NCBI GenBank assembly: GCA_964433755.1
Contig: CAYSSR010000002.1
Span: forward strand, 278,351 to 342,350
From: an uncultured Anaerolineales bacterium
Lineage (GTDB): Bacteria; Chloroflexota; Anaerolineae; UBA7937; B3-Chlor
Length of the DNA stretch: 64,000 nt
Direction: 5' to 3'
In this document: positions 30,397 through 45,505 of the stretch, one piece after another
How positions within the stretch are numbered: the first letter of the stretch is position 1
Layout: each line of letters starts with the position of its first letter
Program-made: the position numbers and the translations under genes
Notes under the pieces: model-generated
Databases searched by the model: none
What the model saw: only the letters and a program-made list of their open reading frames with translations
What the model was told of the DNA's origin: nothing

Positions 30397-30825
30397 TCAC
30401 CTGCCTGTGGCGACAGGCTCTATCAAATCCTCTAGCGTGGTGGAATCGAGCACCTCGACGATCCCATCGTGCATCTTCCTCCACACATCCCTGGCCGCAC
30501 AGATGCCCTGCCGGCCGCACGATTCCTCGGTTCTCTCGTGAGGAATACACTTCAGGGGCATGATGTACCCCTCTTCCAGCGCCCTCACCACGTCACCGAC
30601 CGTGATCTGGCGCGGGGCGCGACAAAGCTCGTAGCCGCCACGCGCGCCCCGAGTGCTCTCCACCAGGTTCGCTTCCTTCAGCAACGGGATGATCTGTTCC
30701 AGATAGCCCAAGGAGACGCCCTGGGCCTCAGCCACGTCGCCCAGCGACATGGGGCCCTGGCCGTGGCGCCTGCCAAGCTCGATCATCGCTCTGAGACCGT
30801 ACTGTTCTCTGGCAGATAGCTTCAT
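30397..30825 (-). CDS. iscR: Rrf2 family transcriptional regulator (IscR-like, with C-terminal Cys cluster)
   Basis: MKLSAREQYGLRAMIELG helix-turn-helix, with C-terminal cysteines for [Fe-S] binding. Confidence 0.8.
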   Translation of the reverse strand: MKLSAREQYGLRAMIELGRRHGQGPMSLGDVAEAQGVSLGYLEQIIPLLKEANLVESTRGARGGYELCRAPRQITVGDVVRALEEGYIMPLKCIPHERTEESCGRQGICAARDVWRKMHDGIVEVLDSTTLEDLIEPVATGR

Positions 30826-30854
30826 GAGGTAATTCCAAGCATAAACTAAGAATT

Positions 30855-30883
30855 ATCATACCACACATCTCTCCAGCAGTCAA
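30855..30883 (-). promoter_or_regulatory. Sigma70-type promoter (minus) TTGACT-17-TATGAT for iscR-nifS-nifU
   Basis: Reverse complement reads cgacTTGACTgctggagagatgtgtggTATGATaattc, ~30 nt before the iscR ATG. Confidence 0.5.
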
Positions 30884-30960
30884 GTCGGCGCTTGCACCGT
30901 GTTGGCGGGCGGTGAATGAGATGCAGCTGAAGGAGTCCCGAGCGACGGGCGGAGAAAGGT

Positions 30961-30993
30961 GAGGGAGTGGACAGCGGGGCTGTCCACTCCCTC
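30961..30993 (-). terminator. Perfect 14-15 bp GC-rich hairpin (gagggagtggacag/ctgtccactccctc) downstream of the C1 protease gene. Likely a terminator insulating the isc operon.
   Basis: Seen directly in the sequence. On the minus strand it is followed by CCTTTCTCC. Confidence 0.45.
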
Positions 30994-31049
30994 AGCGGTA
31001 TGTTCGCGTGGGGCCAGCAGAAGCACTGGCCCCACAGGCATTGGGGGAC

Positions 31050-32357
31050 CTACCCTGTTACGAAGGGTACGAAGGTCCTAAGATCCAGACCACCAGTGGT
31101 AAGGACGAATCGGGCGGTCACCGTTTTGTCGGAGTCCACGATGACACTTATCGACTCGCTGTCGCCAGCTACGTCACCATCCCATCCAGCGAACTCGTAG
31201 CCGTCCACGGGTACCGCAGTAAGCATCACCTCGGTGCCCGACTCACACCCGTCCACCACGCAGGCCAGGGGCTCGGAGAGGATGGCGCCGCCACCTGTGG
31301 GTGCTACGCTGGGGTAGAGGTGGTAGGAGGGCAAAGGTACCTCGACGATGGGAACGTAGGCGTAGTCGTCGATCCCACACTCACCGTACGCTATCTTGAA
31401 CCAACCGTTCTCGCCCCAACCTCTGCCCCAGCTATTCTTCGCGATCCAGTAGCCCTCCTCATCGTCGTAACCAACCACGGTGACAGCGTGGCCACCTTCC
31501 AGCGTGCCTGTGGTGTGCCGGTAGACGCCTCCCTCGTAAGTCCAGAAATCCGAGTAGACCAGCATGGTCGCCTCGAAAGGTCCACTATCAGCCAGTGCCT
31601 GCTTCATATCGTCCGAGTTGGTCAGCCCGACCCACTCAGTGAGGCGTGTGACCCGATTCTGCCAGTCGGGACACAACCTGCACGTCTGATCAGACGTGTC
31701 GTAGGGGTAGCATGGCTCCTCAGTGATGCCTACGTCACGAGCGGCATTCAGCGCTGCAAAGGGGGTCCAGCCGGTAGCGCAGCTACTGCCTGAGTTACAG
31801 AAGAACAGGTGCGCCTCCGAAAGGTCGGGGTTGAGAGCGGGACTGCCCAATGCAATCTCCAGACGGGACTCGATGGCCCCGACGGTGGCGAAGGCCACGC
31901 AGGATCCGCAGGCACTCTGGTTCCGGATGCCAGTCGTCCAGTTTTCACCATCCACGTCCCGCCAATCGAGCCTGGCCGGATAGCCGTAGCTGGCAGAGAG
32001 CTTCACGCCAGCCTCGCTGGCCTGCTCCTTCTCCCACTCCGTCACCTCCATCGGCACACCCAGCAGCCCAACCAGGTCTTCAGGACCCGATTCCAGCAGC
32101 GGGGGCTCGGTGGAGGGCAAAGAGTCTTCGTCGCCGAGTGAGATGGTCTGGGTGACGGTGGTGCCGACAGTATCCGTCGGGGTAGACGAGGCGAAGAGGG
32201 TAGTGGTAATGGTTTCCGGTTGCCAGAGCGTATCCTCGGGGCACCCGGTCGGCTCAGGCGACTCCGTCTGCGCCATAGCAGGAACCTGCAAGACCACACT
32301 GACGCCTGTAGCCAGCAGAACCGCCACGACTAGAACTAGAGTTGACTTGATTCTCAC
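31050..32357 (-). CDS. Secreted papain-family (C1A) cysteine protease with C-terminal InlB-B-repeat-like domain
   Basis: Signal peptide. Catalytic Cys in CGSCVAF, and His/Asn in GGHAV...NSWG. The C-terminal repeat is GYEFAGWDGD. Confidence 0.85.
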   Translation of the reverse strand: MRIKSTLVLVVAVLLATGVSVVLQVPAMAQTESPEPTGCPEDTLWQPETITTTLFASSTPTDTVGTTVTQTISLGDEDSLPSTEPPLLESGPEDLVGLLGVPMEVTEWEKEQASEAGVKLSASYGYPARLDWRDVDGENWTTGIRNQSACGSCVAFATVGAIESRLEIALGSPALNPDLSEAHLFFCNSGSSCATGWTPFAALNAARDVGITEEPCYPYDTSDQTCRLCPDWQNRVTRLTEWVGLTNSDDMKQALADSGPFEATMLVYSDFWTYEGGVYRHTTGTLEGGHAVTVVGYDDEEGYWIAKNSWGRGWGENGWFKIAYGECGIDDYAYVPIVEVPLPSYHLYPSVAPTGGGAILSEPLACVVDGCESGTEVMLTAVPVDGYEFAGWDGDVAGDSESISVIVDSDKTVTARFVLTTGGLDLRTFVPFVTG

Positions 32358-32391
32358 TTTCGCCCCACCCCCGTCGAGACAATGGTGGGGA

Positions 32392-32440
32392 CGAAAGAAA
32401 ACGCGCTCTCAACCACGGTGCCAAAGGGAAAAAGAGCGCG
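32392..32440 (-). terminator. Intrinsic terminator/attenuator in the leader between riboswitch A and the protease gene (CGCGCUCU...AGAGCGCG + UUUUCUUUCG)
   Basis: A perfect 8-bp stem with a 23-nt loop and a U tract on the minus strand. Confidence 0.5.
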
Positions 32441-32454
32441 CTGAATAGCTAGCT

Positions 32455-32550
32455 TTTCTTCGGAGGCAACCCGGCCACCATAGTTCGCTCAGAACCGTAG
32501 GCCCGTGGCTTTGCGTCCCCACCTTTCGATGGGTTTGCCTTTATCACCGA
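32455..32550 (-). promoter_or_regulatory. c-di-GMP-I (GEMM-I) riboswitch aptamer A, in the leader of the C1 protease gene
   Basis: Minus-strand RNA reads GGUGAUAAAGGCAAACCCAUCGAAAGGUGGGGACGCAAAGCCACGGGCCUACGG...GGCCGGGUUGCCUCCGAAG. It matches the GEMM-I core (GGCAAACC, GAAA-capped P2, GGGACGCAAAGCC, a long P3, and P1 closure). Confidence 0.8.
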
Positions 32551-32618
32551 CTTACTGTTAAGGTCTTGCCTGTGAACTGATCCGCGTCAGCACCCCGTAA
32601 AGGACGCCGACTGGTATC

Positions 32619-33896
32619 TCACGCTTGAGCTCTCGTCGTCAACGGCACGTGGCTCTGCTGCAGCGATCCACTGGTCACGGAGAGGATCACCTGCACATCG
32701 ACAGACATGCCCCCGGCGTCTACGGTTATCGTCCCTGCGTGAATCCCTTCAGCGGTCGGGAAGCCCTCCAAGTAGACCACCACGGTCGATTGGCCGGATC
32801 CGGCAGCCTGGCTCAGCTTGATCCAGTCTTGATCGGCGCTGGCAGTCCAGTTGGCCCAGGTGTCGATGTGCACCCCGTTCCCGGCCGGCACCGTGGGCGC
32901 AGAACCCTGCATAGAGAGAAACACCAACGAATCGGGCGACACCCTCAAAGGCAGATCGAGGTAGATGCTGTCGCGGCTCTCGAGCACGGTCGAGCCCCGC
33001 CTGATCTGAGCAAGCACCGTAGCGGGTGATCCATCGCCGGTGGACAACGTCCATGCCTTGTCAGAGGAGAAGGGTTCCCAGGCCGACCAAGTCTCGCCTG
33101 CGTTGCGGAACCTCATCTCCGTCGCCCAGTCCTGGCCATACACGTACAGGTCAACGGAGAGGCTGGCCGTTGACCACGCCTCTCCGTCGACCACCACAGG
33201 GTAGAAGGCATTTCCTTGTACGCCGTTCCGAGCCCCAAGATCAAGGGTCCAGTAGTGGTAGTAATACGCGCTGCCAGAGAAGGCATAGCCCCCTCCCGCC
33301 TCGCGGAAATCCACACTCAGCATGTTGTCCCTGTGACCGGGGCTATTCATCCAGGCATCGACCACCGCCCCAGACGACGTGTACCCCGCTGCGACGTTCT
33401 CGCCAAGATACGTATGGTTCAGGTACCCTGCATTCTCGATCCTGGTGACCCAGTCTGGTTCGCCAGAGCACGTGTGGGCGAAGCAGTCGTGGTTGGCCAT
33501 CCAGTCGCTGTGAAACTGCGCAGAGTCCATCAACTCTGAGGCCGCCTTCAGGGGCGGCAGCCCCCGACTCAGCCGTCTCACGTTTGTGAGACGGACCAGT
33601 GCGTGCCCCTGAGGCTCGTCGGGCGCCCCTGCACCCGCACTGACACTGACCAAACCTTCGTCCGAGTCACTGAGAGTGGATTCCGTGATGGAAGTGGTTC
33701 CGTCGGCGCCAATGAACCCGATGGCAACCGGGTTCCCGTCTCCATCGGCGCCTCCCACCGTGGCCAAGCTGGCCGACGCCAGCAAGAGCAGCAGGAGCGT
33801 ACAGGCAACAATACGATTCCTGGAGACTTCTCTACCTATCCGCAACATCCCGTTACTCGATAACATCTTGCGTTCGCTACGCTGTGCCAATCCCAT
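32619..33896 (-). CDS. Secreted CAP/SCP (YkwD-like) domain protein with C-terminal Ig-like/beta-sandwich domains
   Basis: Signal peptide (the true start is probably an internal ATG, MLRIG...). The SPGHRDNMLSVDFREAGGGYA motif is CAP-type. Confidence 0.75.
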   Translation of the reverse strand: MGLAQRSERKMLSSNGMLRIGREVSRNRIVACTLLLLLLASASLATVGGADGDGNPVAIGFIGADGTTSITESTLSDSDEGLVSVSAGAGAPDEPQGHALVRLTNVRRLSRGLPPLKAASELMDSAQFHSDWMANHDCFAHTCSGEPDWVTRIENAGYLNHTYLGENVAAGYTSSGAVVDAWMNSPGHRDNMLSVDFREAGGGYAFSGSAYYYHYWTLDLGARNGVQGNAFYPVVVDGEAWSTASLSVDLYVYGQDWATEMRFRNAGETWSAWEPFSSDKAWTLSTGDGSPATVLAQIRRGSTVLESRDSIYLDLPLRVSPDSLVFLSMQGSAPTVPAGNGVHIDTWANWTASADQDWIKLSQAAGSGQSTVVVYLEGFPTAEGIHAGTITVDAGGMSVDVQVILSVTSGSLQQSHVPLTTRAQA

Positions 33897-33906
33897 TAAC
33901 TAAGAA

Positions 33907-33942
33907 GCGCCCTTCGCCACATGCCGTTGGTTCGAAGAGCGC
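33907..33942 (-). terminator. Hairpin (GCGCUCUUCG/CGAAGGGCGC) in the leader between riboswitch B and the CAP-protein gene. Candidate attenuator.
   Basis: 10-bp stem with one G-U pair, followed by a weak U tract that overlaps the annotated start region. Confidence 0.35.
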
Positions 33943-33959
33943 TGCGTCTATGCTAGTTG

Positions 33960-34055
33960 TCCTTCGGAGGCAACCCGGCGACCGTAGTTCGACTGAACCG
34001 TAGGCCCGTGGCTTTGCGTCCCCACCTTTCGATGGGTTTGCCTTTGTCACCGCTC
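33960..34055 (-). promoter_or_regulatory. c-di-GMP-I (GEMM-I) riboswitch aptamer B, in the leader of the CAP-protein gene
   Basis: ~93% identical to aptamer A over ~90 nt, with the same GEMM-I core. Confidence 0.8.
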
Positions 34056-34088
34056 GATTGTCAAGGTAAGACCCTCAATGCCATTCCA

Positions 34089-34117
34089 AGTATACAGCAA
34101 GCAGCGCAGACAATCAA
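34089..34117 (-). promoter_or_regulatory. Sigma70-type promoter (minus) TTGATT-17-TATACT driving riboswitch B
   Basis: Reverse complement reads ccaTTGATTgtctgcgctgcttgctgTATACTtgg. Confidence 0.5.
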
Positions 34118-34240
34118 TGGTAAGATGGTACCATACCCAGCAACAACGAGCGGGGGGCTAGGCCGTCCTCTGGAACTTTGGCCTTATGCGAAGCCGCCGT
34201 CAGGGCGCTCTTGTCCAAAGCATGGACGTGCCTATGCGCC

Positions 34241-34269
34241 TTGACACCACCCGGACGGTTGTCTATAAT
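34241..34269 (+). promoter_or_regulatory. Consensus sigma70 promoter TTGACA-17-TATAAT driving riboswitch C and the PEP-CTERM operon
   Basis: The sequence ccTTGACAccacccggacggttgtcTATAATtc is a perfect consensus. Confidence 0.7.
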
Positions 34270-34299
34270 TCGTGATGCCTCTACATCGACTGATCAACG

Positions 34300-34395
34300 C
34301 AGGGTAACGAAAAGGCAACCTTCCTGCGAGGGAAGGAACGCAAAGCCTCGGATCTAGGCTGAACGCGCTCTGACGCCCAGATAGCCGAGCTGCCG
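34300..34395 (+). promoter_or_regulatory. GEMM-I-class (c-di-GMP-I or related cyclic dinucleotide) riboswitch aptamer C
   Basis: AAAAGGCAACC-UUCCUGCGAGGGAAGG (GNRA-capped P2)-AACGCAAAGCC-long P3-GCUGCC. It deviates from consensus at GCAA(A)CC and GGAACGC, so the call is less certain than A and B. Confidence 0.55.
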
Positions 34396-34425
34396 AACTA
34401 CTCAGGCGGCTCGGCGTTTTTTGTT
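34384..34425 (+). terminator. Intrinsic terminator (GCCGAGCUGCC...GGCGGCUCGGC + GUUUUUUGUU) forming the expression platform of riboswitch C
   Basis: 11-bp stem plus a U tract. The 5' arm is shared with the aptamer P3/P1 3' side, which implies a ligand-dependent antitermination (ON) switch. Confidence 0.7.
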
Positions 34426-34549
34426 GCCAAGGACTTTAAAACGCTTTTAAGGCCCGCTTAATGGCTGTTTAAGCTCCGCATGGTAGAGTCGGTAGTTGGT
34501 GACGTCGGCGTTCGGCCCGTGAGTCGACTCGCAGGGAGGAGATAGGAGT

Positions 34550-36130
34550 ATGCTTACTGGAAATGGTCGCATCTCATCGTGGGCGCGCGGCGTCAGTGTT
34601 GTCACTGTCGCCCTTCTTATGCTGATCGCACCCGGGTTGGCGCAGGCTCAGGGACCCGGGGCATGGGAGGAATACTCCGGCAACCCCATCATCGATCCCC
34701 CGGAAGAGGACGCCTACTACCCCAGCGTGCTCTACGACTCTTCCCCGACACCCTTTAGTGGCCACGGGGAAGCAAGCGCCTTCAAGATGTGGCACGACAA
34801 CGGTCTCCAGTACAGAGTCTCCGACGACGGTCTGTCGTGGACCAAAGTAGGAGACATGGATGACGGCACCATCACCGGCCTGCCCGCTGGAGAGGTGCGC
34901 CATCCTCTCGTGGAGTACTACGCGGCTGGGTTCACTGGCAGGAACGATGGCGACAACCCCAGCTCCGCTACCATGTACTATCGTCTCTGGTTCTGGCACC
35001 TGGGCCAGGACCTGTACAGTGTAGCTGCCATCCACTACGCCGAGTCGCCCGATGGAAAGGCCTGGTACAACGTGCAGCCGCTCCAGAACGGCACAGTGCC
35101 CATCGTCACGGGCACCTGGCCTGACTGGAATAGAGGATCGTACGGACCTTGCGATGTCCTCTTCTTTCCGGGAGCCAGCAACTCCGGAACTGACTGGACC
35201 TTCTGGATGTACTATGACGGCACCACCGGCGGAGACGAAGCCATAGGTCTCGGCTTCTCGGCCGATGGCGTGACCTGGACCGGGTACGATCCCGGCGGAG
35301 ACGGCCAGGCTGATGCCGTGATGAACGGCACCTACGTCTCCGGAGACTGGGACTACAACTACCTATCGCGCGCCACCATCTGGAGAGAGGCACCCGGCGA
35401 CTACCGCATGTGGTACAGCGCCGGCGTCGACACCATGAACCATGGCCTCGGATACGCCACCTCCTCCGACGGACTGAGCTGGACACGAGACCCCAACAAC
35501 CCCATCTTCTACAAGGACGATACCGGCTATCCTGGGTATCCCTGGCGCGAGAACCGTAGCTACACCCCCGTGGTGTTGCGTGCCGGGAACCTCTGGTTCA
35601 TGTGGTATTCCGGCGAGAACGGCGGGGGCAAGTGCATCGGTGTAGCCTATTCCAGCGCAGGACTTCCGGAGCAACTCCTGGAGATCGAGAAGAGCGCCCA
35701 TCCAGCGCAGATCGCTGTGGGTGAGAAGACTCTGTTCACCATCACCGTGACCAACGCCTCGATGGACGCCGCCGATGACGTAGTGGTCACGGACGAGATC
35801 GACGCGGGCCTGGAGATCGTGAACGTCCAGACCTCGAAGGGATTGATCTCCACGGCTGGGCAACAAGTGACGGTGGACGTGGGGTCCATGGCCCCAGATG
35901 AGACCGTGGTGATCGAGATTCGGGTGCTGGCGCTGGAGATCGGACAAATCGAGAACGTAGCGGTCGTGACCACGCCGCGAGTCGTCGCCGACGCTGGAGC
36001 GACGCTCGACGTGGTCAGCGCAGCAGCCGTGGAAGAGGAGTTCGTGCCCGAGCCGGGAAGCCTGCTTCTGATGGGCAGCGGCCTGCTCACCATGGCTGGA
36101 TACGCCATCAAGCGAGGTCGAAGACACTAG
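34550..36130 (+). CDS. Secreted BNR/Asp-box beta-propeller (glycoside-hydrolase-like) + DUF11 domain protein with PEP-CTERM sorting signal
   Basis: Signal peptide. Repeated SDDGLSWT / SADGVTWT / SSDGLSWT Asp-boxes and a DUF11 region (TITVTNASMDAADDVVVTDEID). The C-terminus VPEPGSLLLMGSGLLTMAGYAIKRGRRH is PEP-CTERM. Confidence 0.8.
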   Translation: MLTGNGRISSWARGVSVVTVALLMLIAPGLAQAQGPGAWEEYSGNPIIDPPEEDAYYPSVLYDSSPTPFSGHGEASAFKMWHDNGLQYRVSDDGLSWTKVGDMDDGTITGLPAGEVRHPLVEYYAAGFTGRNDGDNPSSATMYYRLWFWHLGQDLYSVAAIHYAESPDGKAWYNVQPLQNGTVPIVTGTWPDWNRGSYGPCDVLFFPGASNSGTDWTFWMYYDGTTGGDEAIGLGFSADGVTWTGYDPGGDGQADAVMNGTYVSGDWDYNYLSRATIWREAPGDYRMWYSAGVDTMNHGLGYATSSDGLSWTRDPNNPIFYKDDTGYPGYPWRENRSYTPVVLRAGNLWFMWYSGENGGGKCIGVAYSSAGLPEQLLEIEKSAHPAQIAVGEKTLFTITVTNASMDAADDVVVTDEIDAGLEIVNVQTSKGLISTAGQQVTVDVGSMAPDETVVIEIRVLALEIGQIENVAVVTTPRVVADAGATLDVVSAAAVEEEFVPEPGSLLLMGSGLLTMAGYAIKRGRRH

Positions 36131-36184
36131 GTCTGTTTCTGTTCGCGCCGGGAGGCACCTGAGGATGCTGGCAAGGAGAAAGAC

Positions 36185-37756
36185 GTGAGTCGAGGCCATT
36201 TCACACTGATTGCTGTGTTGCTCCCCACACTTCTGCTCGGGCTGGCCGCGTCGGGCGCCGCCTTCGCCGACGGTACGACGCATTACGTGAGTCCCGGACA
36301 AGACATCCAGGGGATCATCGACACCGCCAGTCCAGGGGACACTATCCAGTTCGCCCCAGGCACCTACACGCTGGCCTCGACCCTCTGCGTGAGCAAACCG
36401 CTTACTCTCACCTCTGCCGACCCCTACGCAGAAGTCAAACCCCTTCTCGACGGTGGAGGGAGTCTGGAGACCATCGTCTACGTGAACTCGGACAGCGTGG
36501 TCATCGATGGGCTGGAGATCGCCAATGGCACCGGCGATCTCGTCCTCCAGAGCGGGGCGTACGCAGAAACCGTGGTCCGGAACAACACTGTCCACGATTC
36601 GACCGGAGACGAGGGCATCCAGTTGAAGCAGTGCACGGATTGCGTTGTCGAATTCAACCTCATCTACGACGTCGCTCAGGATGGCATCTGCATAGCGGAC
36701 GCCTCGCACGACTGCCTGATCAGCAACAACGAGATCTACAACTCGTACAGCGAGAACGCCGTCATCTACGTCTACGATTCATACAACATCACTGTGGAAA
36801 GCAACTACATCCACGATACGCAGGGAGCCAACGGCATCACGTTCTACAAGAACTACGGCGCCACCCACACCATCACCAACAACCTCATCGTCAGCAACGA
36901 GTGGCGGGGTGGCAAGCACTGCTACGACGAAGCCGACGGAAATGCGGTGAGCATCTACAAGCCCCGGACGTCCAGCACCTACGTGGTCACTCACAATACC
37001 ATCGATGACAACACGCCGGCCAACGGTTGCGCCCAGCCGGGAAACGCCATCTACGTCAACGATGGCTCCGGGGTGGGCTTCAGCACCGACGTGCAGAGCA
37101 ACATCGTGACCAATCACAGCGGCTACGGCATCCGCACCTACTGTGAGGCTCTGGTGGGCTATGGCTGCAACGACCTGTGGCAGAATGCTCTCGGCGCCAC
37201 GGACGGCAACCCCGTAGATGCCGGCGGCAACATCTCCGCTGATCCCCTCTTCGATACCGACCACTCCTTGCTGGAAGGAAGCCCCGCCATCGACATGGCC
37301 TGCGACGGGAAAGACATGGGGGTCGACTTCTCGTTGTGGGGATACGAGCCCGCACTCCAGATCACGAAGGCCGTGAATCCGCTCTCGGTGGAAGAGGGAG
37401 CGGGGGCGACGTTCACCATCACTGTAACGAACGACGGCCCTGGGGCGGCACAGGACGTGGTGCTCACCGACGAGATAGACGCAGACCTTCAGATCTCCTC
37501 CGTGGAGACTACTCAGGGCACCCCACTCCAGGTAGGCCAGACGATCACTGTCGATATCGGGATGCTCGAGCGTAACGAAACCGTGACCGTCACCATCGCC
37601 GTGACAGCAACCGAGATGGGCACCCAGGTCAACGTCGCCCATCTGCGCTCCCTCACAGTCGAGGGGATGGATTCCAACAGTGTGCCGCTGGAGGTAGGGC
37701 CGCCCGCCCAACCACCACCCAACTTCTACTTTCCGCTCGTGCTCTGTGCTTTCTGA
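36185..37756 (+). CDS. Secreted right-handed parallel beta-helix (pectate-lyase-fold, PbH1 repeats) + DUF11 domain protein
   Basis: Signal peptide. Repeated NNT/NNE...I.N/D beta-helix rungs and a DUF11 region (TFTITVTNDGPGAAQDVVLTDEID). It has a hydrophobic C-terminus but no PEP motif. Confidence 0.7.
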   Translation: MSRGHFTLIAVLLPTLLLGLAASGAAFADGTTHYVSPGQDIQGIIDTASPGDTIQFAPGTYTLASTLCVSKPLTLTSADPYAEVKPLLDGGGSLETIVYVNSDSVVIDGLEIANGTGDLVLQSGAYAETVVRNNTVHDSTGDEGIQLKQCTDCVVEFNLIYDVAQDGICIADASHDCLISNNEIYNSYSENAVIYVYDSYNITVESNYIHDTQGANGITFYKNYGATHTITNNLIVSNEWRGGKHCYDEADGNAVSIYKPRTSSTYVVTHNTIDDNTPANGCAQPGNAIYVNDGSGVGFSTDVQSNIVTNHSGYGIRTYCEALVGYGCNDLWQNALGATDGNPVDAGGNISADPLFDTDHSLLEGSPAIDMACDGKDMGVDFSLWGYEPALQITKAVNPLSVEEGAGATFTITVTNDGPGAAQDVVLTDEIDADLQISSVETTQGTPLQVGQTITVDIGMLERNETVTVTIAVTATEMGTQVNVAHLRSLTVEGMDSNSVPLEVGPPAQPPPNFYFPLVLCAF

Positions 37757-37873
37757 GGGCTACTCTCGCGGCCCCTCAGACCATGACTTGCCTCTTCGGC
37801 AAGCCAGAATAGGAAATGGTGGTGACTCAATAGTTGAAGGCGACGACTCGAGACATCGGGAGGAGGAAAGACA

Positions 37874-39451
37874 ATGAAGCATAGACAGGGTAGGGTCTCA
37901 CTGCGCACAGCGGGTGCTTGTATGGCGATCGTCATCTCCCTTCTGCTGCTCGTTCCAGGGCTGGCGCAGGCCCAGGGACCCGGCACCTGGGAAGAGTACT
38001 CGGGCAACCCCATCATCGGTCCCACCACCGACGCCGACGGTTTGTATCCCTCCATACTCTACGATCCGTCCCCGACCCCCTTCGGTGGTCACGGGGAAGC
38101 GAGCCACTTCAAGATGTGGCACAACATGAATCTCCAGTATCGAACCTCAGACGATGGCATCTCGTGGACCAAAGTAGGCGATATGCTGGACGGCACCATC
38201 ACAGGCTTGCCAGCAGGCCACGTGAGTCACCCGTTGGTGGAGTACTATGCAGACGGGTTCCCGGGTCGCAACGATGGCACCAATCCCAGCGCAAGCACGA
38301 TGTACTACCGGCTGTGGTTCTGGCACACCAGCTACCTCTACACCGTTATGTCTACCCACTACGCCGAATCAGCCGATGGCAAGGCCTGGTACAACCTGCA
38401 GCCCCTTCAGAATGGCGCTGTGCCCATCGTCACGGGGGTGTATGGCGATTGGAACCGAGGGTCGTACGGACCTTGCGACGTGCTCTATGACCCTGGTGCC
38501 AGCAACAGCGGCACCGACTGGACCTTCCGGCTGTACTACGATGGCACTACGGGCGGTGACGAAGCTGTAGGACTTGGCTTCTCGGCAGACGGAGTCACCT
38601 GGACCGGCTACGATCCCGACAATGATGGAGACGCCGATGACGTCATGAACGGCACCTACGTGGCCGGGGACTGGGACTACAACTACGTATCGCGCGCGAC
38701 CGTCTGGAGAGAGGGTCCAGGGGACTACCGCATGTGGTACAGCGCCGGCCCCGGGGAGATGCGCCAGGGCATAGGCTACGCCACGTCTCCCGACGGGTTG
38801 ACCTGGACCCGCGACCCCGGCAACCCCATCTTCCACAAGACCGATACCGGATATCCTGGCTATCCCTGGCGACAGAACTGGTCTTACACGCCCATGGTCT
38901 TGCGCGCCGAGAACCTCTGGCTGATGTGGTACTCTGGTGAGGGCGGAGAAGGGCAGTGCCTGGGTCTCGCCTACGCCAGCGCGGGACTGCCGATCACACT
39001 GATAGAGATCGAGAAGAGCGCCCACCCGCCCGAGGTGAGCGTGGGGGAGGAAGCCCTGTTCAACATCACCGTGACTAACGCCTCGCTGGACATCGTTGAT
39101 GACGTGATGGTCAAAGACAAGATCGACGCCAGCCTGGAGATATTGGACGTTCAGACCACCAAGGGATCGATCTCCACAACCGGGCAATTGGTGACGGTGA
39201 ACATAGGGGCCATGGACCCAGACGAGAGCGTGGAGATAACCATTCGAGTGCTGGCTACAGAACCAGGGACGATCGAGAACGTGGCCACCGTGGTCGCTCC
39301 GCGCGTCGAAGATACCGCCGAAGCCGTTCTCACCGTGATTCCCGCTGTCGCCGAGGAGTATGTGCCCGAGGCTGGGTCGCTGCTGCTGCTGGCCAGCGGA
39401 CTCGCCAGCATGGTCGGATTCGCCCGCGGCCGCCGCGGAAGGGCCAGATAA
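37874..39451 (+). CDS. Paralog of 34550..36130: BNR-propeller + DUF11 protein with PEP-CTERM-like signal (VPEAGSLLLLASGLASMVGFARGRRGRAR)
   Basis: ~65-70% identical to the first copy, with the same domain order. Confidence 0.8.
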   Translation: MKHRQGRVSLRTAGACMAIVISLLLLVPGLAQAQGPGTWEEYSGNPIIGPTTDADGLYPSILYDPSPTPFGGHGEASHFKMWHNMNLQYRTSDDGISWTKVGDMLDGTITGLPAGHVSHPLVEYYADGFPGRNDGTNPSASTMYYRLWFWHTSYLYTVMSTHYAESADGKAWYNLQPLQNGAVPIVTGVYGDWNRGSYGPCDVLYDPGASNSGTDWTFRLYYDGTTGGDEAVGLGFSADGVTWTGYDPDNDGDADDVMNGTYVAGDWDYNYVSRATVWREGPGDYRMWYSAGPGEMRQGIGYATSPDGLTWTRDPGNPIFHKTDTGYPGYPWRQNWSYTPMVLRAENLWLMWYSGEGGEGQCLGLAYASAGLPITLIEIEKSAHPPEVSVGEEALFNITVTNASLDIVDDVMVKDKIDASLEILDVQTTKGSISTTGQLVTVNIGAMDPDESVEITIRVLATEPGTIENVATVVAPRVEDTAEAVLTVIPAVAEEYVPEAGSLLLLASGLASMVGFARGRRGRAR

Positions 39452-39470
39452 GCCAGAATCTCTGCGACTG

Positions 39471-40229
39471 CTAGTCGACTTCGAGCGCGGACAGGAGCTG
39501 CCCTTTCAAGGATGCGAACGCACCCGAGGTGATCATGTCTCGCTGCCGCGGGCGCGCCAGTGGAATGCTGAGCTCCAGCTTGATCCTTCCGGGCCGAGGA
39601 CTCATGACGTAGACGCGGTCGGCGAGGTAGATGGCCTCGTCTACGTCGTGGGTCACGAAGATGATCGTTTGCCCAAACTGGCTCCACACCTCGAGCAACC
39701 ACTGCTGTAGCTGCCGCCTGGTTAGGGCATCCAGGGCACCGAAGGGTTCGTCCAGCAGCATCACGTCCCTCCGGCAGAGGAACGTCCGCAACAGAGCAGC
39801 CCTTTGCCTCATACCTCCTGACAACGTTGCCGGGTAACTCCCCTCGAACCCTTCCAGGCCGAAGAGAGGAAGCAGGCCCACAGCTTCCTGCCGCGCCTCC
39901 TTCCTGCTCGCGCCGCTGATCTCGGGACCGAGGATCACGTTGTCCAGGACCTTCCGCCAGGGGAGCAGCAAGTCCTTCTGTAGCATGTAGCCCACCAGAC
40001 CGGTGCGATCCACGACCGGCTGGCCGTCCAGGAGCACCTCTCCCCGGTCAGGTTGCACCAGGCCGCAGATGATGTTCAGCAGCGTGCTCTTTCCGCAGCC
40101 GCTCGGCCCGATGAGGACCACGAACTCCCCGTCTTTGGCAGAGAGACTGACCCCGTCCAGCGTGGTGACCAGCCTGCCATCCACGTGGTAGTCCTTGAAG
40201 ACCTGCCGTACCTCGACCTCGCTGACCAT
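39471..40229 (-). CDS. ABC transporter ATP-binding protein (NitT/TauT family)
   Basis: GPSGCGKST Walker A and LSGGMRQR signature. Confidence 0.9.
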   Translation of the reverse strand: MVSEVEVRQVFKDYHVDGRLVTTLDGVSLSAKDGEFVVLIGPSGCGKSTLLNIICGLVQPDRGEVLLDGQPVVDRTGLVGYMLQKDLLLPWRKVLDNVILGPEISGASRKEARQEAVGLLPLFGLEGFEGSYPATLSGGMRQRAALLRTFLCRRDVMLLDEPFGALDALTRRQLQQWLLEVWSQFGQTIIFVTHDVDEAIYLADRVYVMSPRPGRIKLELSIPLARPRQRDMITSGAFASLKGQLLSALEVD

Positions 40230-40230
40230 G

Positions 40231-41226
40231 CTACGGCAAGAACTCGTTGGTAAAGGCAGCCCCGGCGTCGATGTGGCTGGGCAGCAGTTCTCTATCGGCC
40301 ATCCAATCGGCGTAGCCCTTCCAGATCTCCAGCTTCTGCTCTCCCCACCTGGCGGCGTCCTCCTGGTAGTGAGCGCTCAGCCACTCCTGGCTACGCTCGA
40401 CCAGTTCCGCGTTGCTCTCGGGCGCATACTCCAGGAGGATCTGAGCCGCCTCGGACGGGTTGGATATGGCGAACTCGTACCCCCGGGAGGTGGCCGCCAT
40501 GAAGCCGCGCACTAGCTCCGGGTCCTCGGCGATGTTCTCCTCGCTGGTGATGATCACCGGCGTGTAGTAGTCGGGTACACAGTCAGCCCAGTCGCTCAAC
40601 ATCACGATATCGACGGGGCTCCCTCGCAACTCCGCCTCCATCCCCGTCCAGCCATAGAAGATCCACGCGAAGTCCACGTCCCGCTCGACGACGGTGAAGT
40701 AGTCGGCCCAACCGATATCGATGAACTCCACCTCGTTCACATCGCCGCCGTCACAGGTCATCAGCACGTCCAGCACAGCCCGCTCGATGGGAGAACCCCA
40801 ACTGCCATATCGTTTCCCTTCGAAATCCTTGGGCCGCTCGATGCCCCGATCCTGCGGGCTGGCAAACCCAGACGTGTTGTGCTGGATGACAGCCGCCACT
40901 GACACGATGGGGATTTCCTCAGCCCGAGCATAGGACACCTCTTCCTGATAGCTGATGCCGAAATCTGCCTGCCCCGCCGCCACCACCTGAACGAGGGTGC
41001 TGCCCTCCGCTGGCTCGATGATCTCCACGGCCAGTCCTTCGTCGCTGTACCAACCCTTGTCCAGCGCCACGTAGAGACCAGTATGATTGGTGTTGGGGAA
41101 CCAGTCCAACATCACCACCACCGGCTCAGGGGGCTCCGTGGCCACGGGCTGGGCGCCCTGGCAGCCGATCACCGTCACCAACAGAACAGCCAGGAATACG
41201 ACTCGTCTCCACTTGCAGGCCAACAT
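40231..41226 (-). CDS. ABC transporter substrate-binding lipoprotein, NMT1/THI5-like (thiamine-precursor binding)
   Basis: Start reset to MLACKWRR (lipobox VIGC). The 220-aa N-terminal extension in the ORF track overlaps the permease gene and was rejected. Confidence 0.75.
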   Translation of the reverse strand: MLACKWRRVVFLAVLLVTVIGCQGAQPVATEPPEPVVVMLDWFPNTNHTGLYVALDKGWYSDEGLAVEIIEPAEGSTLVQVVAAGQADFGISYQEEVSYARAEEIPIVSVAAVIQHNTSGFASPQDRGIERPKDFEGKRYGSWGSPIERAVLDVLMTCDGGDVNEVEFIDIGWADYFTVVERDVDFAWIFYGWTGMEAELRGSPVDIVMLSDWADCVPDYYTPVIITSEENIAEDPELVRGFMAATSRGYEFAISNPSEAAQILLEYAPESNAELVERSQEWLSAHYQEDAARWGEQKLEIWKGYADWMADRELLPSHIDAGAAFTNEFLP

Positions 41227-41285
41227 CGTCTTTCTCCTTTGGTCGATACGGTGCCCTGACCTTTGAGGGTCACGCCACCGCCGAC

Positions 41286-42152
41286 TCATGCCTCCTCCCA
41301 GACTTCCTCCCGCTGCGCGTAGTACCACGGTAGCACCGAGCGCTCCAGCAACATCACTACGGCAAACATGAGAATGCTCAGCAACGACGTCACGGCGATG
41401 GCGGCGAACACTCGATCTGTCAAGAAGTTCTTGGACGACCGGATCATGAAGATGCCCAGGCCTCGGCTCGCCCCCACCCATTCGCCGATGACAGCACCGA
41501 CCACACTGTACGTGATGGCGATCTTGAGACCAGAGAAGAACGAGGGAAGCGCTCCGGGCACCCGCACCTTGAGGAATATCTGACGTCTGTTCGCCCCCAT
41601 GGCCCTGAGCAGAGCGATCAGATCCGGGTCGGCCACCCTCAGTCCATCTGCGGTGCTGACGGCGATAGGGAAAAAGCAGACCAGGGCCACCACGATGACC
41701 TTGGGCAAGATTCCATATCCGAACCAGATGATGAGCAGAGGAGCAAGGGCCAGCACCGGCACAGTCTGGGAGGTCACCAACAATGGGTAGACCGTCCGGC
41801 GCAGCAGGCTCGACGAGTCGACCACCACGGCCAGGCAGAGGCCGACCATCAGAGCAAGGCCCAGCCCCAGCCACGTCTCCTTGAGAGTCTGCCACGTATG
41901 CGGACCCAGCAACTCACGCGCTTCATAGCCAGCCCTGACGATCTGTGTAGGGGACGGCAACAGCCACTTCGGGATCTGCATCAGCGAGGTGCCGAGCTGC
42001 CAGGCAAACAACAGCAGCAGAATGAGTATCAGCGGCGGCGCGTACAACCGAACCAGGCGGAGTGCTCCTACCAGTCGCGCTGGCCCCCCACGGGTATCAA
42101 GCGAAGAATCCCGACTCGGACCGGACTTCCGTCGAGCTCCCTCAGACTTCAT
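41286..42152 (-). CDS. ABC transporter permease (NitT/TauT family)
   Basis: Six predicted TM helices and an EAA-like loop. Confidence 0.85.
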   Translation of the reverse strand: MKSEGARRKSGPSRDSSLDTRGGPARLVGALRLVRLYAPPLILILLLLFAWQLGTSLMQIPKWLLPSPTQIVRAGYEARELLGPHTWQTLKETWLGLGLALMVGLCLAVVVDSSSLLRRTVYPLLVTSQTVPVLALAPLLIIWFGYGILPKVIVVALVCFFPIAVSTADGLRVADPDLIALLRAMGANRRQIFLKVRVPGALPSFFSGLKIAITYSVVGAVIGEWVGASRGLGIFMIRSSKNFLTDRVFAAIAVTSLLSILMFAVVMLLERSVLPWYYAQREEVWEEA

Positions 42153-42436
42153 GGTTCCCTGTACTTGGCCACCTTCTCGGCGATGGTAGTGCCCCCTACC
42201 ACGTCCACGATCTTGACGAAGGTCACGACGCGCTCCGCCCCTGCCTCGAAGCAGGCCCGATGTCCTCCCTTCACGATCTCCAGGAGGTCATCAAGTTCCC
42301 CTTGCATGGTCGTTTCGTGGGGCCCGACCTCATACTCCACGCCCGAGTGTTGCACCACTTCGATCGCCTTGTCCACTACGGGATAGGGATCGTCGCAGAT
42401 CGGTATCACCTGGAAGCTAACCGTGATCTCGCTCAT
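42149..42436 (-). CDS. YkoF/MTH1187 family thiamine/HMP-binding protein
   Basis: MSEITVSFQVIP...VEYEVGPHETTMQGELDDLLEIVK pattern. Start taken at MSEITV. Confidence 0.7.
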   Translation of the reverse strand: MSEITVSFQVIPICDDPYPVVDKAIEVVQHSGVEYEVGPHETTMQGELDDLLEIVKGGHRACFEAGAERVVTFVKIVDVVGGTTIAEKVAKYREP

Positions 42437-43109
42437 GCTCACCTTCTTTCGCGTGTGCTCCGTTGTCGTCCAAGGGCCGATGGTGATGAACCAGCAGCAG
42501 GAGTCCATCCCGTACCCGTACCCTGGCTCGAGAGGCAACCAGCACGTTGCTCACTCCTCGACTGGCGCCAAACTGGAGTGACTCATCGGTCAGAGGATAC
42601 TCCAGACCCTCTGTGTGAACGCCCACGGCGTCCCCGCCAATCGGCAGCAGAGAGACGGTGTCGCCAGGCCGACCCTCGATCAGGATCTCGTCCCTCAGCA
42701 ACGCCAACTCCTGGTTACCATCTATCATTCTCGCTGAAACAGAACTCAATTCCGGTATGGCCAGCAGCATGACGTTGGCGAGGGTGTGGTCTATACGACC
42801 TCCAAGGGCTGCGAGTATGAGTAGCTCTGTTGCCCCCTCTGACAAGGCGTACCTCACGGCCAGTTCGGAGTCGGTCTCATCCTTGCGCGATGGGTACTCC
42901 ACGAACAGACAGCCCTCTCCCTCCAGATGGCGGCGCAGTTCAGGGTCGATGGAATCCATGTCGCCAATCACGACGCTGGGTTCCAGTCCCAGTGCCAGCG
43001 CATTTCCAGCTCCGCCATCCACGCACACCACCAGGTCCTCGCTCGTGATTCGAGGTCGTGGAATGGGCGGCCTCGGCAGGGGTCCATTGGCTACGATCAC
43101 CGCACGCAT
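42417..43109 (-). CDS. Thiamine pyrophosphokinase
   Basis: DGGA, IGDMDS, KDETDSE and GGRIDHTLAN motifs. Start taken at MRAVIVANG, which is preceded by GGGGAGGAG. Confidence 0.75.
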   Translation of the reverse strand: MRAVIVANGPLPRPPIPRPRITSEDLVVCVDGGAGNALALGLEPSVVIGDMDSIDPELRRHLEGEGCLFVEYPSRKDETDSELAVRYALSEGATELLILAALGGRIDHTLANVMLLAIPELSSVSARMIDGNQELALLRDEILIEGRPGDTVSLLPIGGDAVGVHTEGLEYPLTDESLQFGASRGVSNVLVASRARVRVRDGLLLLVHHHRPLDDNGAHAKEGEHERDHG

Positions 43110-43120
43110 GGCTCCTCCCC

Positions 43121-43158
43121 AACAAAAGAGAGCCGCCTCCCTCGCAGGGCTGCGGCTC
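43121..43158 (-). terminator. Intrinsic terminator (GAGCCGC...GCGGCUC + UCUUUUGUU) forming the expression platform of the TPP riboswitch
   Basis: 7-bp GC stem plus a U tract, immediately upstream of the thiamine pyrophosphokinase ribosome-binding site. Confidence 0.6.
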
Positions 43159-43177
43159 GAAACAAGCTCTTCAGCAA

Positions 43178-43280
43178 CCTTCCCTACGCTGGCATTACCC
43201 ATGTCAGGTTCGTGGGGTCGAGGGCATTGCGGGCCCTCCTCTCAGCCTGGCTCACCAAGCTCCCCTGGGTGCTTCCATTC
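43178..43280 (-). promoter_or_regulatory. TPP (thiamine pyrophosphate) riboswitch
   Basis: Minus-strand RNA reads ...GGGGAGC...GCUGAGAGG...ACCCCACGAACCUGACAUGGGUAAUGCCAGCGUAGGGAAGG. It matches the conserved TPP aptamer blocks. Confidence 0.85.
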
Positions 43281-43668: not shown

Positions 43669-44292
43669 CTAGTCTGGCGGGGCGTCGTCTTGGACTGCAG
43701 CCACTTCCGTGTCGCTCCGGGCAAGCTCCCCCTCGAGTTGTCTCGAGACCAAAAACGTGCACGAGTCGTCACCCCGCGCAACACACTCCGTCTCAATGAC
43801 ACGGAAACCCTCTTCCTCAGTGAGCCAGTGGAGTACTTCGTCTACCATGCCAGCAATGCCGAAGCAGACAGGTGCCTCCGAGACTCTGCCCCAGCACTCG
43901 GGACAGTGCTCGATCATCAGAAGAAGATCGCCGGCCCGCTCCTCGAGATGGGCATCCACGTCGCTGAACTTGCCCAAGACGTCGGCCAGAGTGTTCAACC
44001 CCACCTTGACCTTGGCTCCGACGGGCAAGAGCTTGAAGGCAGGGTCCGGGAGGTCCGCCATCAGCCCACCCTCAGTGACCGCTTGTCGAAGAGTCGCCCT
44101 GCCCGCCCGCCGGCAGAGTCCCTTCGCCCCTTGCGGCCCGCACATCTCCAGGACGGACTGGTTGAGCGCGGCGAAATCCTCGAAGGGGACCTCGCTGTCG
44201 AGCGTGTCCGGTGGGTAGTCGCCAATCAGGTGGTCGAGCCTCGCCAGACGCAGAACGGCAGCAACACCGTTGCTGCCCATTATGTCCTCCAT
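43669..44292 (-). CDS. V4R (4-vinyl reductase) domain protein
   Basis: C-terminal HCPECWG...C motif typical of V4R small-molecule-binding domains. Confidence 0.6.
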   Translation of the reverse strand: MEDIMGSNGVAAVLRLARLDHLIGDYPPDTLDSEVPFEDFAALNQSVLEMCGPQGAKGLCRRAGRATLRQAVTEGGLMADLPDPAFKLLPVGAKVKVGLNTLADVLGKFSDVDAHLEERAGDLLLMIEHCPECWGRVSEAPVCFGIAGMVDEVLHWLTEEEGFRVIETECVARGDDSCTFLVSRQLEGELARSDTEVAAVQDDAPPD

Positions 44293-44479
44293 GGCCGTCA
44301 GATAGAGACGAGCCAGCTCATTGGAGTAGTATCTTCTTTCGCCGTTCCATACCTCTGACAGGGCCCACCTCCGCCCACGGCATCACAGGTACTGCTTTCG
44401 AGCCCACCAACTGACTCCCCTCTGCCAATCCACACCTCTCCGTATCGCGGCAGATGTGTTCAGGCCATCGACGAACAGC

Positions 44480-44854
44480 TCACACGATCTGGGCCAGATC
44501 CTCCGCGGCGCGCTTCATATCCAGAAGCAGCAACCCCAGCCGAGCATCACTGCGAGCCAGCACTGTCAGCACTGCCTCCTCCCCCACGGCTCGCAGAATG
44601 ACGTAGCCGTCCTCGCCCTTGATGTGAACCTGCTCCAACACCCCGCGCCCCAGCTCTCCCGCTATGCGCTCCCCGAGAGAGAGCATGGCGGCGGACATGG
44701 CCGAGACCCGATCCTCTTCCACTCCAGGGGGAAGCGAGGAGGCCATGATCAGTCCATCAAGACTGACCACTGCCGAGGCTTCGATATCGGGGGTGGTCAC
44801 CTGGAGGTCCCTCAGGCGCTCCACCATCTGCACCGTCCTCGGTTTGGCCATCAC
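44480..44854 (-). CDS. Roadblock/LC7 (MglB-like) domain protein
   Basis: 124 aa with the Robl_LC7 pattern (SAVVSLDGLIMASS). Confidence 0.8.
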   Translation of the reverse strand: MMAKPRTVQMVERLRDLQVTTPDIEASAVVSLDGLIMASSLPPGVEEDRVSAMSAAMLSLGERIAGELGRGVLEQVHIKGEDGYVILRAVGEEAVLTVLARSDARLGLLLLDMKRAAEDLAQIV

Positions 44855-44971
44855 ACTTCCTCCTCAGGCAAGTCCAGGGCCCTCATCTCGAAGGCCCGTG
44901 TTGTGGCACTGGCCACACGCAGTCGCCCCTGGCTGTGATTCTGGCAAGCTTGCTCAACCTCTGGATCCCCC

Positions 44972-45505
44972 CTATCCTTCGCTGATCGACTCCAGTATCG
45001 AGTAGAGCAGCTCAAGGAGTACCCCCTTCACGCTTTCACGGTCGGTGGCCACGCACGAGAGGACCTTTGCGTCCGAGGAGGCCCTCAGTGCGATTCGCAT
45101 ATCCTCCGGGGGCCACGCATCCTCCACGTCTTGCTTGTTAGCCGCTATCACGAAGGGTGTCGGAGAGTACCGGCGGAAGCGGTCCAGTATCATCTTTGCC
45201 TCGCGGAAGGTCTCCGGGCGAGCGCTATCCACCAGTACCACGAAGCCCAGCATCCCCTCCGAGAGAATGTCCCACATGAAGTCGAAGCGCTTTTGGCCCG
45301 GCGTCCCGAACAGGTACAGAGTGAGGTCGTTGTCCACTGTAATGCGGCCGAAGTCCATGGCCACGGTGGTCTTTCCCTTCACCACCCGTGACCCGTCGGT
45401 GATCTTCTGCTCGGTGGATACGACGTCTATCTCGCTGACGCTACTGATGAACTCGGTCTTGCCTGCATTGAAAGGTCCTGTGACCACCACCTTCACAGTC
45501 TGCAT
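44972..45505 (-). CDS. Small Ras-like GTPase (MglA/CvnD-like, COG2229)
   Basis: P-loop GPFNAGKT and NKQD G4 motif. Start taken at MQTVKVVV. Confidence 0.8.
   Translation of the reverse strand: MQTVKVVVTGPFNAGKTEFISSVSEIDVVSTEQKITDGSRVVKGKTTVAMDFGRITVDNDLTLYLFGTPGQKRFDFMWDILSEGMLGFVVLVDSARPETFREAKMILDRFRRYSPTPFVIAANKQDVEDAWPPEDMRIALRASSDAKVLSCVATDRESVKGVLLELLYSILESISEG

Follow-up and report, generated by a model that had tools for sequence, protein, structure and literature searches.

The question that this locus raises is why three copies of a single riboswitch class are located within 2 kb of each other, at the head of two divergent sets of genes for secreted proteins, and whether the three copies direct these genes the same way in response to their ligand. 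The locus occupies positions 31050-39451 of a stretch of 64,000 nucleotides, which we refer to as the window (contig CAYSSR010000002.1 of assembly GCA_964433755.1, positions 278,351 to 342,350), from an uncultured Anaerolineales bacterium of the phylum Chloroflexota. Five protein genes, here named P1 to P5, are involved: on the minus strand, P1 encodes a cysteine protease and P2 a protein of the CAP/SCP family, while on the plus strand, P3 and P5 encode paralogous surface proteins, with the gene of a beta-helix protein, P4, located between them. Where aptamer helices share such a name, we write "helix P3" in full.

Our answer is a reciprocal switch, a reading to which we give somewhat more credence than doubt: at high cyclic di-GMP (c-di-GMP), the surface-protein operon P3-P4-P5 would be ON, while the CAP and protease genes would be OFF. 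The initial annotation of this DNA had described a c-di-GMP-gated regulon; the three aptamers and the secreted cargo of that description are retained here, but its single shared direction is not, as the expression platforms differ, with C predicted to be ON and A and B predicted to be OFF.

The whole window has been scanned with Rfam cmscan at the gathering thresholds (gathering score of RF01051: 35), and three c-di-GMP-I aptamers have been found at the places where they had been annotated:

32462-32549, minus strand: aptamer A, c-di-GMP-I (RF01051, 83.9 bits, E-value 4.6e-15)
33966-34052, minus strand: aptamer B, c-di-GMP-I (RF01051, 82.9 bits, E-value 8e-15)
34304-34397, plus strand: aptamer C, divergent c-di-GMP-I (RF01051, 52.0 bits, E-value 2.9e-07)

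Each of the three matches spans the full RF01051 model (1-87), and A and B are close to its consensus. In the Rfam alignment, the tetraloop of the first hairpin is GAAA in A and B and GCGA in C, and the segments GGCAAA, ACGCAAAGCC and UGCC of all three aptamers are aligned to the RF01051 consensus; we take these segments to hold the positions equivalent to the Vc2 ligand contacts G20, A47 and C92. The residues G, A and C are present at the three equivalent positions in all three aptamers, which identifies them as canonical c-di-GMP-type aptamers and not as A20 (cyclic GMP-AMP, cGAMP) or GGC variants. The setting is that of a 5' untranslated region, with promoters located upstream of B and C and terminators with U-tracts located downstream of all three. 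A permissive Rfam rescan of 30800-39700 has returned no further RNA family, and elsewhere in the window the Rfam scan lists one thiamin pyrophosphate (TPP) riboswitch and one tRNA-His. The description of A and B as two tandem aptamers is imprecise: each heads its own gene, with the CAP gene (about 1.3 kb) located between them.

The aptamers and the genes make up a chromosomal locus that is conserved among relatives of this bacterium; the identity of the aptamers, the gene content, the architecture of the expression platforms and the conservation itself are all observed. The locus is flanked by iscR-iscS-iscU on one side and by a thiamin operon with a TPP riboswitch on the other side, and at least eight contigs of related Anaerolineae in JGI and GTDB (L002, L003, L004, L007, L010, L011, L012 and L014) keep both the order of the genes and the riboswitches; the nearest named genomes are metagenome-assembled genomes (MAGs) of uncultured Anaerolineales and Anaerolineae, at 86-88% identity. 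The GC content is uniform across the locus (0.58-0.63), which, together with the syntenic flanks, rules out an island acquired by horizontal transfer, and the label "island" that the locus had been given is dropped. In every related locus, the protease leader retains one to three aptamers, and aptamer A is conserved upstream of the P1 homologues in all of them. True tandems are found in relatives, where a single leader of the protease gene bears two or three aptamers; in L007 and L011, the CAP gene has been lost, leaving such a tandem pair. In L003 and L010, an FG-GAP protein occurs in place of P4 and P5.

The direction in which each riboswitch acts has been explored through the structure of its expression platform, and the leader of aptamer C gives the clearest prediction. 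Its elements are the following:

34241-34269, plus strand: consensus sigma-70 promoter of leader C (TTGACA-17-TATAAT, 12 of 12 consensus positions)
34384-34422, plus strand: intrinsic terminator of leader C (5' arm GCCGAGCUGCC, 3' arm GGCGGCUCGGC, then G and U6; U-tract at 34417-34422)
34434-34489, plus strand: AT-rich block of TTTAAG direct repeats and TGgTAGAGT, a probable activator-dependent internal promoter (from its conservation)

The 5' arm of the terminator, GCCGAGCUGCC, is itself the 3' strand of helices P3/P1 of the aptamer. The terminator arms overlap aptamer C by 13-17 nt in six loci (the window, L002, L007, L011, L012 and L104), and a compensatory change, from A-U to G-C, is seen in the terminator of L002. 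In the unconstrained minimum free energy (MFE) fold, the terminator is formed and helix P3 is destroyed in four of the four C leaders. Since the aptamer and the terminator share a strand and are hence mutually exclusive, leader C is predicted to be an ON switch, and we hold this prediction, which comes from folding models, with considerable confidence.

The third element of the list is located downstream of the riboswitch-C terminator, 60 nt ahead of the start of P3, and consists of the units CTTTAA, TTTTAAG, CTTAATG and TTTAAG at a spacing of about 11 nt, followed by TGgTAGAGT. It is unique in the window, where no occurrence is expected by chance, and it is kept in loci that have no aptamer C. 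Judging from the sequence, the block is probably an activator-dependent, riboswitch-independent internal promoter of the P3-P5 operon; riboswitch C would then gate only the read-through from the consensus promoter located upstream.

The leaders of aptamers A and B are built differently:

34089-34117, minus strand: sigma-70-like promoter of leader B (TTGATT-17-TATACT, 9 of 12 consensus positions)
33897-33943, minus strand: intrinsic terminator of leader B (AGCGCUCUUCG...CGAAGGGCGCU and UCUUAGUU; z -2.62 for the pairing of its apex with helix P3; U-tract at 33897-33905)
32392-32441, minus strand: intrinsic terminator of leader A (GCGCGCUCU...AGAGCGCGU and UUUUCUUUC; U-tract at 32392-32400)
32357-32397, minus strand: 13-bp hairpin that buries the Shine-Dalgarno (SD) sequence and the GUG start codon of P1 in the consensus fold (CUUUCG-U-CCCCACC / GGUGGGG-CGAAAG)

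Here, the terminators are separate hairpins that start 18-25 nt past the aptamer. When the helices of the aptamer are enforced, the terminator forms in 10 of 11 folded leaders; the constraint of the eleventh (L002_B) was malformed, so that this leader is not a test, and the terminator forms there too. In about 20 distinct leaders of protease and CAP genes, the apex of these terminators, GGC..GUGG[C/U], is complementary to the invariant 5' strand of helix P3, AAGCCACGGGCC, with a duplex energy of -16.6 to -23.8 kcal/mol and z-scores of -2.1 to -4.9 relative to shuffled apices. In leader A of the window, where the apex is GGCACCGUGG, the apical segment GGCACCGUGGUU would pair with the 5' strand of helix P3 at -20.3 kcal/mol (z -4.25). 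Most of the other leaders with this aptamer core, which are mainly of the pilin type, show no such complementarity. An alignment of 29 leaders has 79.3% of its cells paired in the terminator register vs 36-66% in slid registers, with three terminator pairs changed on both sides, and 79.7% paired in the anti-terminator register vs 29-39% in slid registers. The unconstrained MFE fold of leader A of the window is the anti-terminated one (-57.0 vs -54.3 kcal/mol). From these folding models and complementarities, leaders A and B are predicted to be OFF switches, a prediction that we regard as probable, though less secure than that for leader C.

Several other ways of reading these leaders have been tried and rejected. 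A polarity call from aptamer-terminator overlap across all 124 metagenome aptamers was given up, as the hairpin finder took some spurious long hairpins and the pilin-type leaders have no complementarity of the apex with helix P3; for the same two reasons, the OFF prediction is confined to the leaders of the protease and CAP genes. An anti-terminator that would pair the linker GAAGAA with the distal 5' arm, with an apparent covariation in L003 (GAUAGA/UCUAUC), was discarded as the main mechanism because these bases are part of the extended terminator stem of L003. The pairing of the 5' strand and J1/2 of the aptamer with the terminator apex occurs in the MFE fold of the window, but is not conserved in L003 or L010.

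The proteins that these leaders precede are listed below:

31050-32357, minus strand: P1, secreted papain-family (C1) cysteine protease with a C-terminal InlB-B-repeat-like domain (PF00112, E-value 2.6e-49, 168.7 bits; PF18998, E-value 3.7e-10)
32619-33848, minus strand: P2, secreted CAP/SCP (YkwD-like) protein with a C-terminal immunoglobulin (Ig)/BACON-like region (PF00188, E-value 1.4e-19, 71.5 bits vs a cut-off of 21.1)
34550-36130, plus strand: P3, signal peptide, five-bladed GH130-like propeller, DUF11/CLIPPER Ig-like region and PEP-CTERM tail (VPEPGS, transmembrane segment, KRGRRH)
36185-37756, plus strand: P4, secreted right-handed beta-helix (Pel9A/NosD-like) protein with DUF11 and no transmembrane tail (Pfam/NCBIfam)
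37874-39451, plus strand: P5, paralogue of P3 at 71% identity (tail VPEAGS, transmembrane segment, RRGRAR)

All five open reading frames (ORFs) that follow the aptamers open with a signal-peptide-like sequence, by inspection of their translations, in agreement with the initial view of the cargo as secreted; the assignments of the C1 protease, the CAP/SCP protein and the parallel-beta-helix/DUF11 protein are likewise borne out by the family matches listed. The catalytic Gln/Cys/His/Asn motifs of P1 are intact in its translation (NQSACGSCVAF, GGHAVTVVGY and AKNSWG). The ORF of P2 extends to 33896, and its probable start is the ATG at 33848, given the call of a 409-residue homologue in L004 and the U-tract of the terminator that abuts 33896. 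At the C-terminus of P4, the motif YFPLVL is conserved. As a separate observation, the three proteins without a transmembrane tail all end in [FYH][VFL]P[LFV][VLT], a feature that is common to their homologues: P1 in ..RTFVPFVTG (31050-31075), P2 in ..SHVPLTTRAQA (32619-32650) and P4 in ..NFYFPLVLCAF (37725-37756). This ending has no match among the NCBIfam sorting domains and may be an undescribed C-terminal signal.

P3 and P5 had been annotated as two paralogous BNR-propeller/DUF11 PEP-CTERM proteins, of which the paralogy, the DUF11 and the PEP-CTERM tails stand and the BNR assignment does not. The N-terminal propeller carries SxDGxxW motifs, which are common in this propeller fold and are probably what lay behind the label "BNR"; in Pfam and NCBIfam, the domain has no BNR family match. 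The AlphaFold (AF2) model (predicted local distance difference test, pLDDT, 82) has five four-stranded blades, and the structures that superpose best in Foldseek are of GH130 (4udk, 4udg, 1vkd and 5ayd; target template modelling score 0.59-0.63, root-mean-square deviation about 5-6 Å). A six-bladed BNR/Asp-box propeller of the sialidase type has been rejected, given the absence of a BNR model match, the five blades of the model and the superposition of the sialidase matches at 16 Å. The family profile has weak matches to GH130 chains in the PDB (E-values 2e-4 to 0.4); the propeller protein of the window has no PF04041 match at E <= 0.01, and some of the propeller homologues carry PF04041 or PF22847. 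On the model and these matches, we take the N-terminal domain of P3 and P5 to be a GH130-like five-bladed propeller. Distant homologues of the propeller carry other anchors, i.e. LPxTG-like, type IX secretion system (T9SS), or xSFxAR-transmembrane-basic tails, and this choice of anchors supports a location at the cell surface.

In an Anaerolinea sp. MAG (L015), two tandem c-di-GMP-II-GAG (RF03169) aptamers are located at 2271-2360 and 2455-2542 (plus strand; 66 and 54 bits), immediately ahead of a P3-propeller homologue, which ties the propeller family to c-di-GMP signalling via two unrelated riboswitch classes.

Taken as a mechanism, the reciprocal switch that we prefer would operate as follows. 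The three class I riboswitches would read c-di-GMP with opposite outputs. Leader C would be transcribed from the consensus promoter at 34241-34269; the ligand would lock aptamer C, the terminator would be blocked and transcription would proceed into the P3-P4-P5 operon, giving the propeller/DUF11 surface proteins P3 and P5, with their PEP-CTERM tails, and the secreted beta-helix/DUF11 protein P4. In leaders A and B, the 5' strand of helix P3, AAGCCACGGGCC, would pair with the terminator apex in the absence of ligand and block termination, while in the presence of ligand, helix P3 would be held in the aptamer, the terminator would form and transcription of the CAP gene (B) and of the C1 protease gene (A) would stop; aptamer B would also act on P1 if P1 and P2 were co-transcribed. 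High c-di-GMP, i.e. the sessile state, would thus bring anchored, matrix-active surface proteins, and low c-di-GMP the secreted protease and the CAP protein.

A number of points weigh against this reading. The ON and OFF polarities are what we infer from thermodynamic folding and sequence complementarity. Leader B and several A-type relatives form the terminator in the full-length unconstrained MFE fold, and in leader B and some relatives the anti-terminated fold appears only before the 3' arm becomes available; in these leaders, anti-termination would have to be kinetic. The anti-terminator cannot show covariation, because the 5' strand of helix P3 is invariant. The structure of the P1 transcript is uncertain, as the stretch from the stop codon of the CAP gene to aptamer A has yielded no promoter. 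Aptamer C is absent from L003, L010 and L014, and the promoter-like block downstream of riboswitch C could free the P3 operon in part from control by c-di-GMP. The connection of the protease with P3 and P5, in which P1 would release or degrade these surface proteins, is speculative and drawn by analogy with ZmpI of C. difficile.

Other readings of the same leaders have to be weighed against the reciprocal switch. The one closest to the initial annotation has all three riboswitches acting in the same direction, with the five genes forming one c-di-GMP-induced regulon for matrix, adhesion or polysaccharide remodelling; the membership of all three in one riboswitch class, their location within 2 kb and the secretion of all five products would suit it, but we consider it unlikely, since the platforms are built differently, with nucleotides shared by the aptamer and the terminator only in C, and since the separate terminators of A and B form whenever the aptamer is folded. 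Still harder to uphold is a reading in which the main effect of A and B is on translation or on the stability of the mRNA, exerted by way of the hairpin over the SD sequence and the GUG start of P1, the downstream hairpins being constitutive attenuators. In its favour, the stem of this 13-bp hairpin is conserved while its loop varies, two stem positions show compensatory changes, the 5' arm, GUCCCCACC, is fully complementary to the aptamer segment GGUGGGGAC, and several leaders have the terminator in their full-length MFE fold regardless of the constraint. However, the hairpin is located about 110 nt from the aptamer, past a strong terminator, leader B has no equivalent of it and the complementarity of the terminator apex to helix P3 is specific to the protease and CAP leaders, which leaves us with little belief in a translational switch. 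Least probable of all, and to our mind nearly negligible, is a different cyclic dinucleotide as the ligand, e.g. the GEMM-Ib ligand 3'3'-cGAMP or that of the c-di-GMP-I-GGC variant. Aptamer C does score 49.4 bits against RF03167, the GGC variant (34305-34398, plus strand), but this is under the cut-off of 59, and C has an A at the A47-equivalent position, where membership of RF03167 would need a G; the ligand-contact positions that are kept in all three aptamers and the closeness of A and B to the RF01051 consensus also speak against it.

The tails of P3 and P5 have a rival reading of their own, independent of the direction of the switches. Both tails had been called PEP-CTERM, and by profile match both fall into this class: P3 passes both models (PF07589, 22.9 vs 20.7; TIGR02595, 18.9 vs 16; tail alone, 25.3 bits against TIGR02595), while P5 passes marginally with the tail alone (TIGR02595, 16.2 vs 16) and has no match with the full protein. 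The motif is VPEPGS in P3 and VPEAGS in P5 and most homologues, and the helix, the Arg cluster and the signal peptide are present in both. The initial annotation had also stated that the window holds no exosortase, and this is confirmed: among the ORFs of at least 150 residues outside the core locus, an ABC permease is the single polytopic membrane protein. Likewise, no exosortase has been found within 10 kb of the fetched homologous loci, among the 10 of 18 polytopic ORFs from these loci that were scanned with Pfam, or on the contig that bears one of the tail homologues; a tblastn search of the consensus tail against plasmids has returned nothing, and a search of the literature on exosortases or PEP-CTERM in Chloroflexi and Anaerolineae has found nothing relevant. 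To our knowledge, Chloroflexota are generally regarded as having no classical outer membrane. The VPE[P/A]GS-transmembrane-Arg tails could accordingly be plain membrane anchors, or substrates of another sorting enzyme, in a lineage without an exosortase; the absence of the enzyme from the window and from every fetched neighbourhood, the PEA in place of PEP in P5 and most of the family, the LPxTG-like, T9SS and xSFxAR-transmembrane anchors of the propeller homologues and the lack of literature all point that way. Against it, TIGR02595 recognises 14 of the 15 tails of the family at E <= 1 (best 1.6e-06), the tail of P3 is well above the cut-off, and proteins with a PEP-CTERM sorting domain are already labelled as such by NCBI in several MAGs of Anaerolineae, so that we regard the plain-anchor reading as possible, but doubt it. 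Beyond the reciprocal switch, a bolder picture may be drawn, to which we attach a low probability: a self-contained attach/release toggle made of RNA only, in which c-di-GMP would switch on PEP-CTERM-anchored, glycan-binding propellers and a beta-helix enzyme and switch off a papain-like sheddase and the CAP protein that remove them, joined to a sorting system of the PEP-CTERM/exosortase type, or an undescribed equivalent, beside the xLxSFxAR-transmembrane and [FY]xPLV signals, which would be undescribed as well.

Two further observations concern tails of this kind in Anaerolineae. A second type, consisting of xLxSFxAR, a transmembrane helix and a basic end, occurs in surface proteins of L003 (11939-13204), L010 (11937-12482) and L015 (2739-3920), with examples such as ..ELASFAARPG..RRSQVL and ..TLSSFEARGAD..WRARR, and has no match among the NCBIfam sorting domains. 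In another Anaerolineae MAG (L052, 3290-8556), a small PEP-CTERM-tailed ORF is located beside genes of c-di-GMP turnover (REC-GAF-GGDEF, CHASE4-PAS-GGDEF and REC-PAS-HD-GYP), with a phage-like region on its other side.

The wider distribution of the aptamers bears on how ordinary the locus is. The 26-nt core of the A/B aptamer has been found in 111 metagenome contigs (L053-L163), where the downstream genes include at least 15 C1 proteases and six CAP proteins, type IV pilins, PilX, a REC-MshEN-T2SSE PilB-like ATPase, a GH18 chitinase and a Wzz tyrosine kinase, as well as exopolysaccharide (EPS) genes, transglutaminase-like proteins, a sigma-70 factor and PAS-GAF proteins. Such a range of genes is the one classically associated with GEMM. 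The pilin-type leaders have a different terminator, GAAGCGUGCUG...CAGCACGCUUU, without the complementarity between the apex and helix P3. The initial annotation had called the pairing of riboswitches with PEP-CTERM cargo unusual in this kind of genome; the pairing of these riboswitches with secreted or surface proteins is typical of GEMM-I, as in these 111 contigs. The locus is a standard riboswitch class with typical cargo, and the design is already known, while the example is new.

The nearest known design is that of C. difficile, where zmpI (CD2830) has a repressing class I c-di-GMP riboswitch, and CD2831 and CD3246, sortase-anchored substrates of ZmpI, have activating class II riboswitches (PMC6366702). 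In both organisms, the gene of a secreted protease adjoins genes of C-terminally anchored surface proteins, with riboswitches at the head of both, and one signal has opposite outputs, which is known for C. difficile and predicted from folding here. The parts differ: class I aptamers would serve both polarities here, whereas class II serves the ON direction in C. difficile; the protease is of the papain family C1 instead of a zinc Pro-Pro endopeptidase; the anchors are PEP-CTERM-like instead of LPxTG, in a phylum, Chloroflexota, that is a different one; and a CAP protein is predicted to be co-regulated with the protease. Serial class I aptamers before a gene for a secreted or surface protein are also found in Bc3-5 of Bacillus thuringiensis, a triple-tandem c-di-GMP-I riboswitch upstream of the collagen-adhesion gene cap (PMC4759541), and our relatives with two or three aptamers in the protease leader resemble it; in the window, however, the same-strand aptamers are split by a gene and predicted to be OFF, and the target is a protease, not an adhesin. 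With Vc1/Vc2 of Vibrio cholerae and the GEMM regulon, the locus shares the RF01051 family and the link to genes of environment, membrane and motility; it differs in its Anaerolineae lineage and in the A/B-type anti-terminator, where the apical loop of the terminator mimics the 3' strand of helix P3. As in PEP-CTERM/exosortase sorting (TIGR02595, e.g. the floc protein PepA), P3 and P5 have a signal peptide, a PEP-like motif, a hydrophobic helix and an Arg-rich extreme C-terminus, but the majority motif here is VPEAGS.

Additional gene groups of the window are located beyond the locus. The thiamin operon that flanks it (39471-43276, minus strand) encodes a thiamin pyrophosphokinase, a thiamine-binding protein, an NMT1/THI5-like binding protein, a permease and an ABC ATPase; it is headed by the TPP riboswitch (43163-43276, minus strand, 61.2 bits) and is kept in all the syntenic loci. 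Adjoining it, in the window and in all relatives, is a cluster of V4R, Roadblock/LC7, Ras-like small GTPase and PatA_N genes (43669-46379, minus strand), an MglA/MglB-like polarity module that has been identified by synteny with annotated loci. Finally, hutU urocanase, an amidohydrolase, the tRNA-His (57983-58055) and histidyl-tRNA synthetase are grouped at 53425-61302 (plus strand), a gathering of histidine-related genes.

Anaerolineae are filamentous bacteria, for the most part uncultured, that abound in sediments and in the flocs and granules of sludge. The locus that we have described is predicted to be a compact, protein-free read-out of c-di-GMP in this class, made of three short leaders, with two predicted polarities inside one divergent control region of 250 bp, and it supplies candidate surface or matrix proteins together with a candidate dispersal protease. 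What it adds to the known design is a predicted opposition of polarities, an anti-terminator in the leaders of the protease and CAP genes in which the terminator apex mimics part of the aptamer, and the diversity of anchors in Anaerolineae; the PEP-CTERM-like tails, in turn, raise a tractable question of protein sorting in Chloroflexota. If the predicted polarity is true, the "adhesin on, sheddase off" design of C. difficile would extend to a distant phylum, and, as it would be built there from different parts, i.e. class I aptamers only, a C1 protease and PEP-CTERM-like anchors, a convergent evolution of the circuit could be argued.

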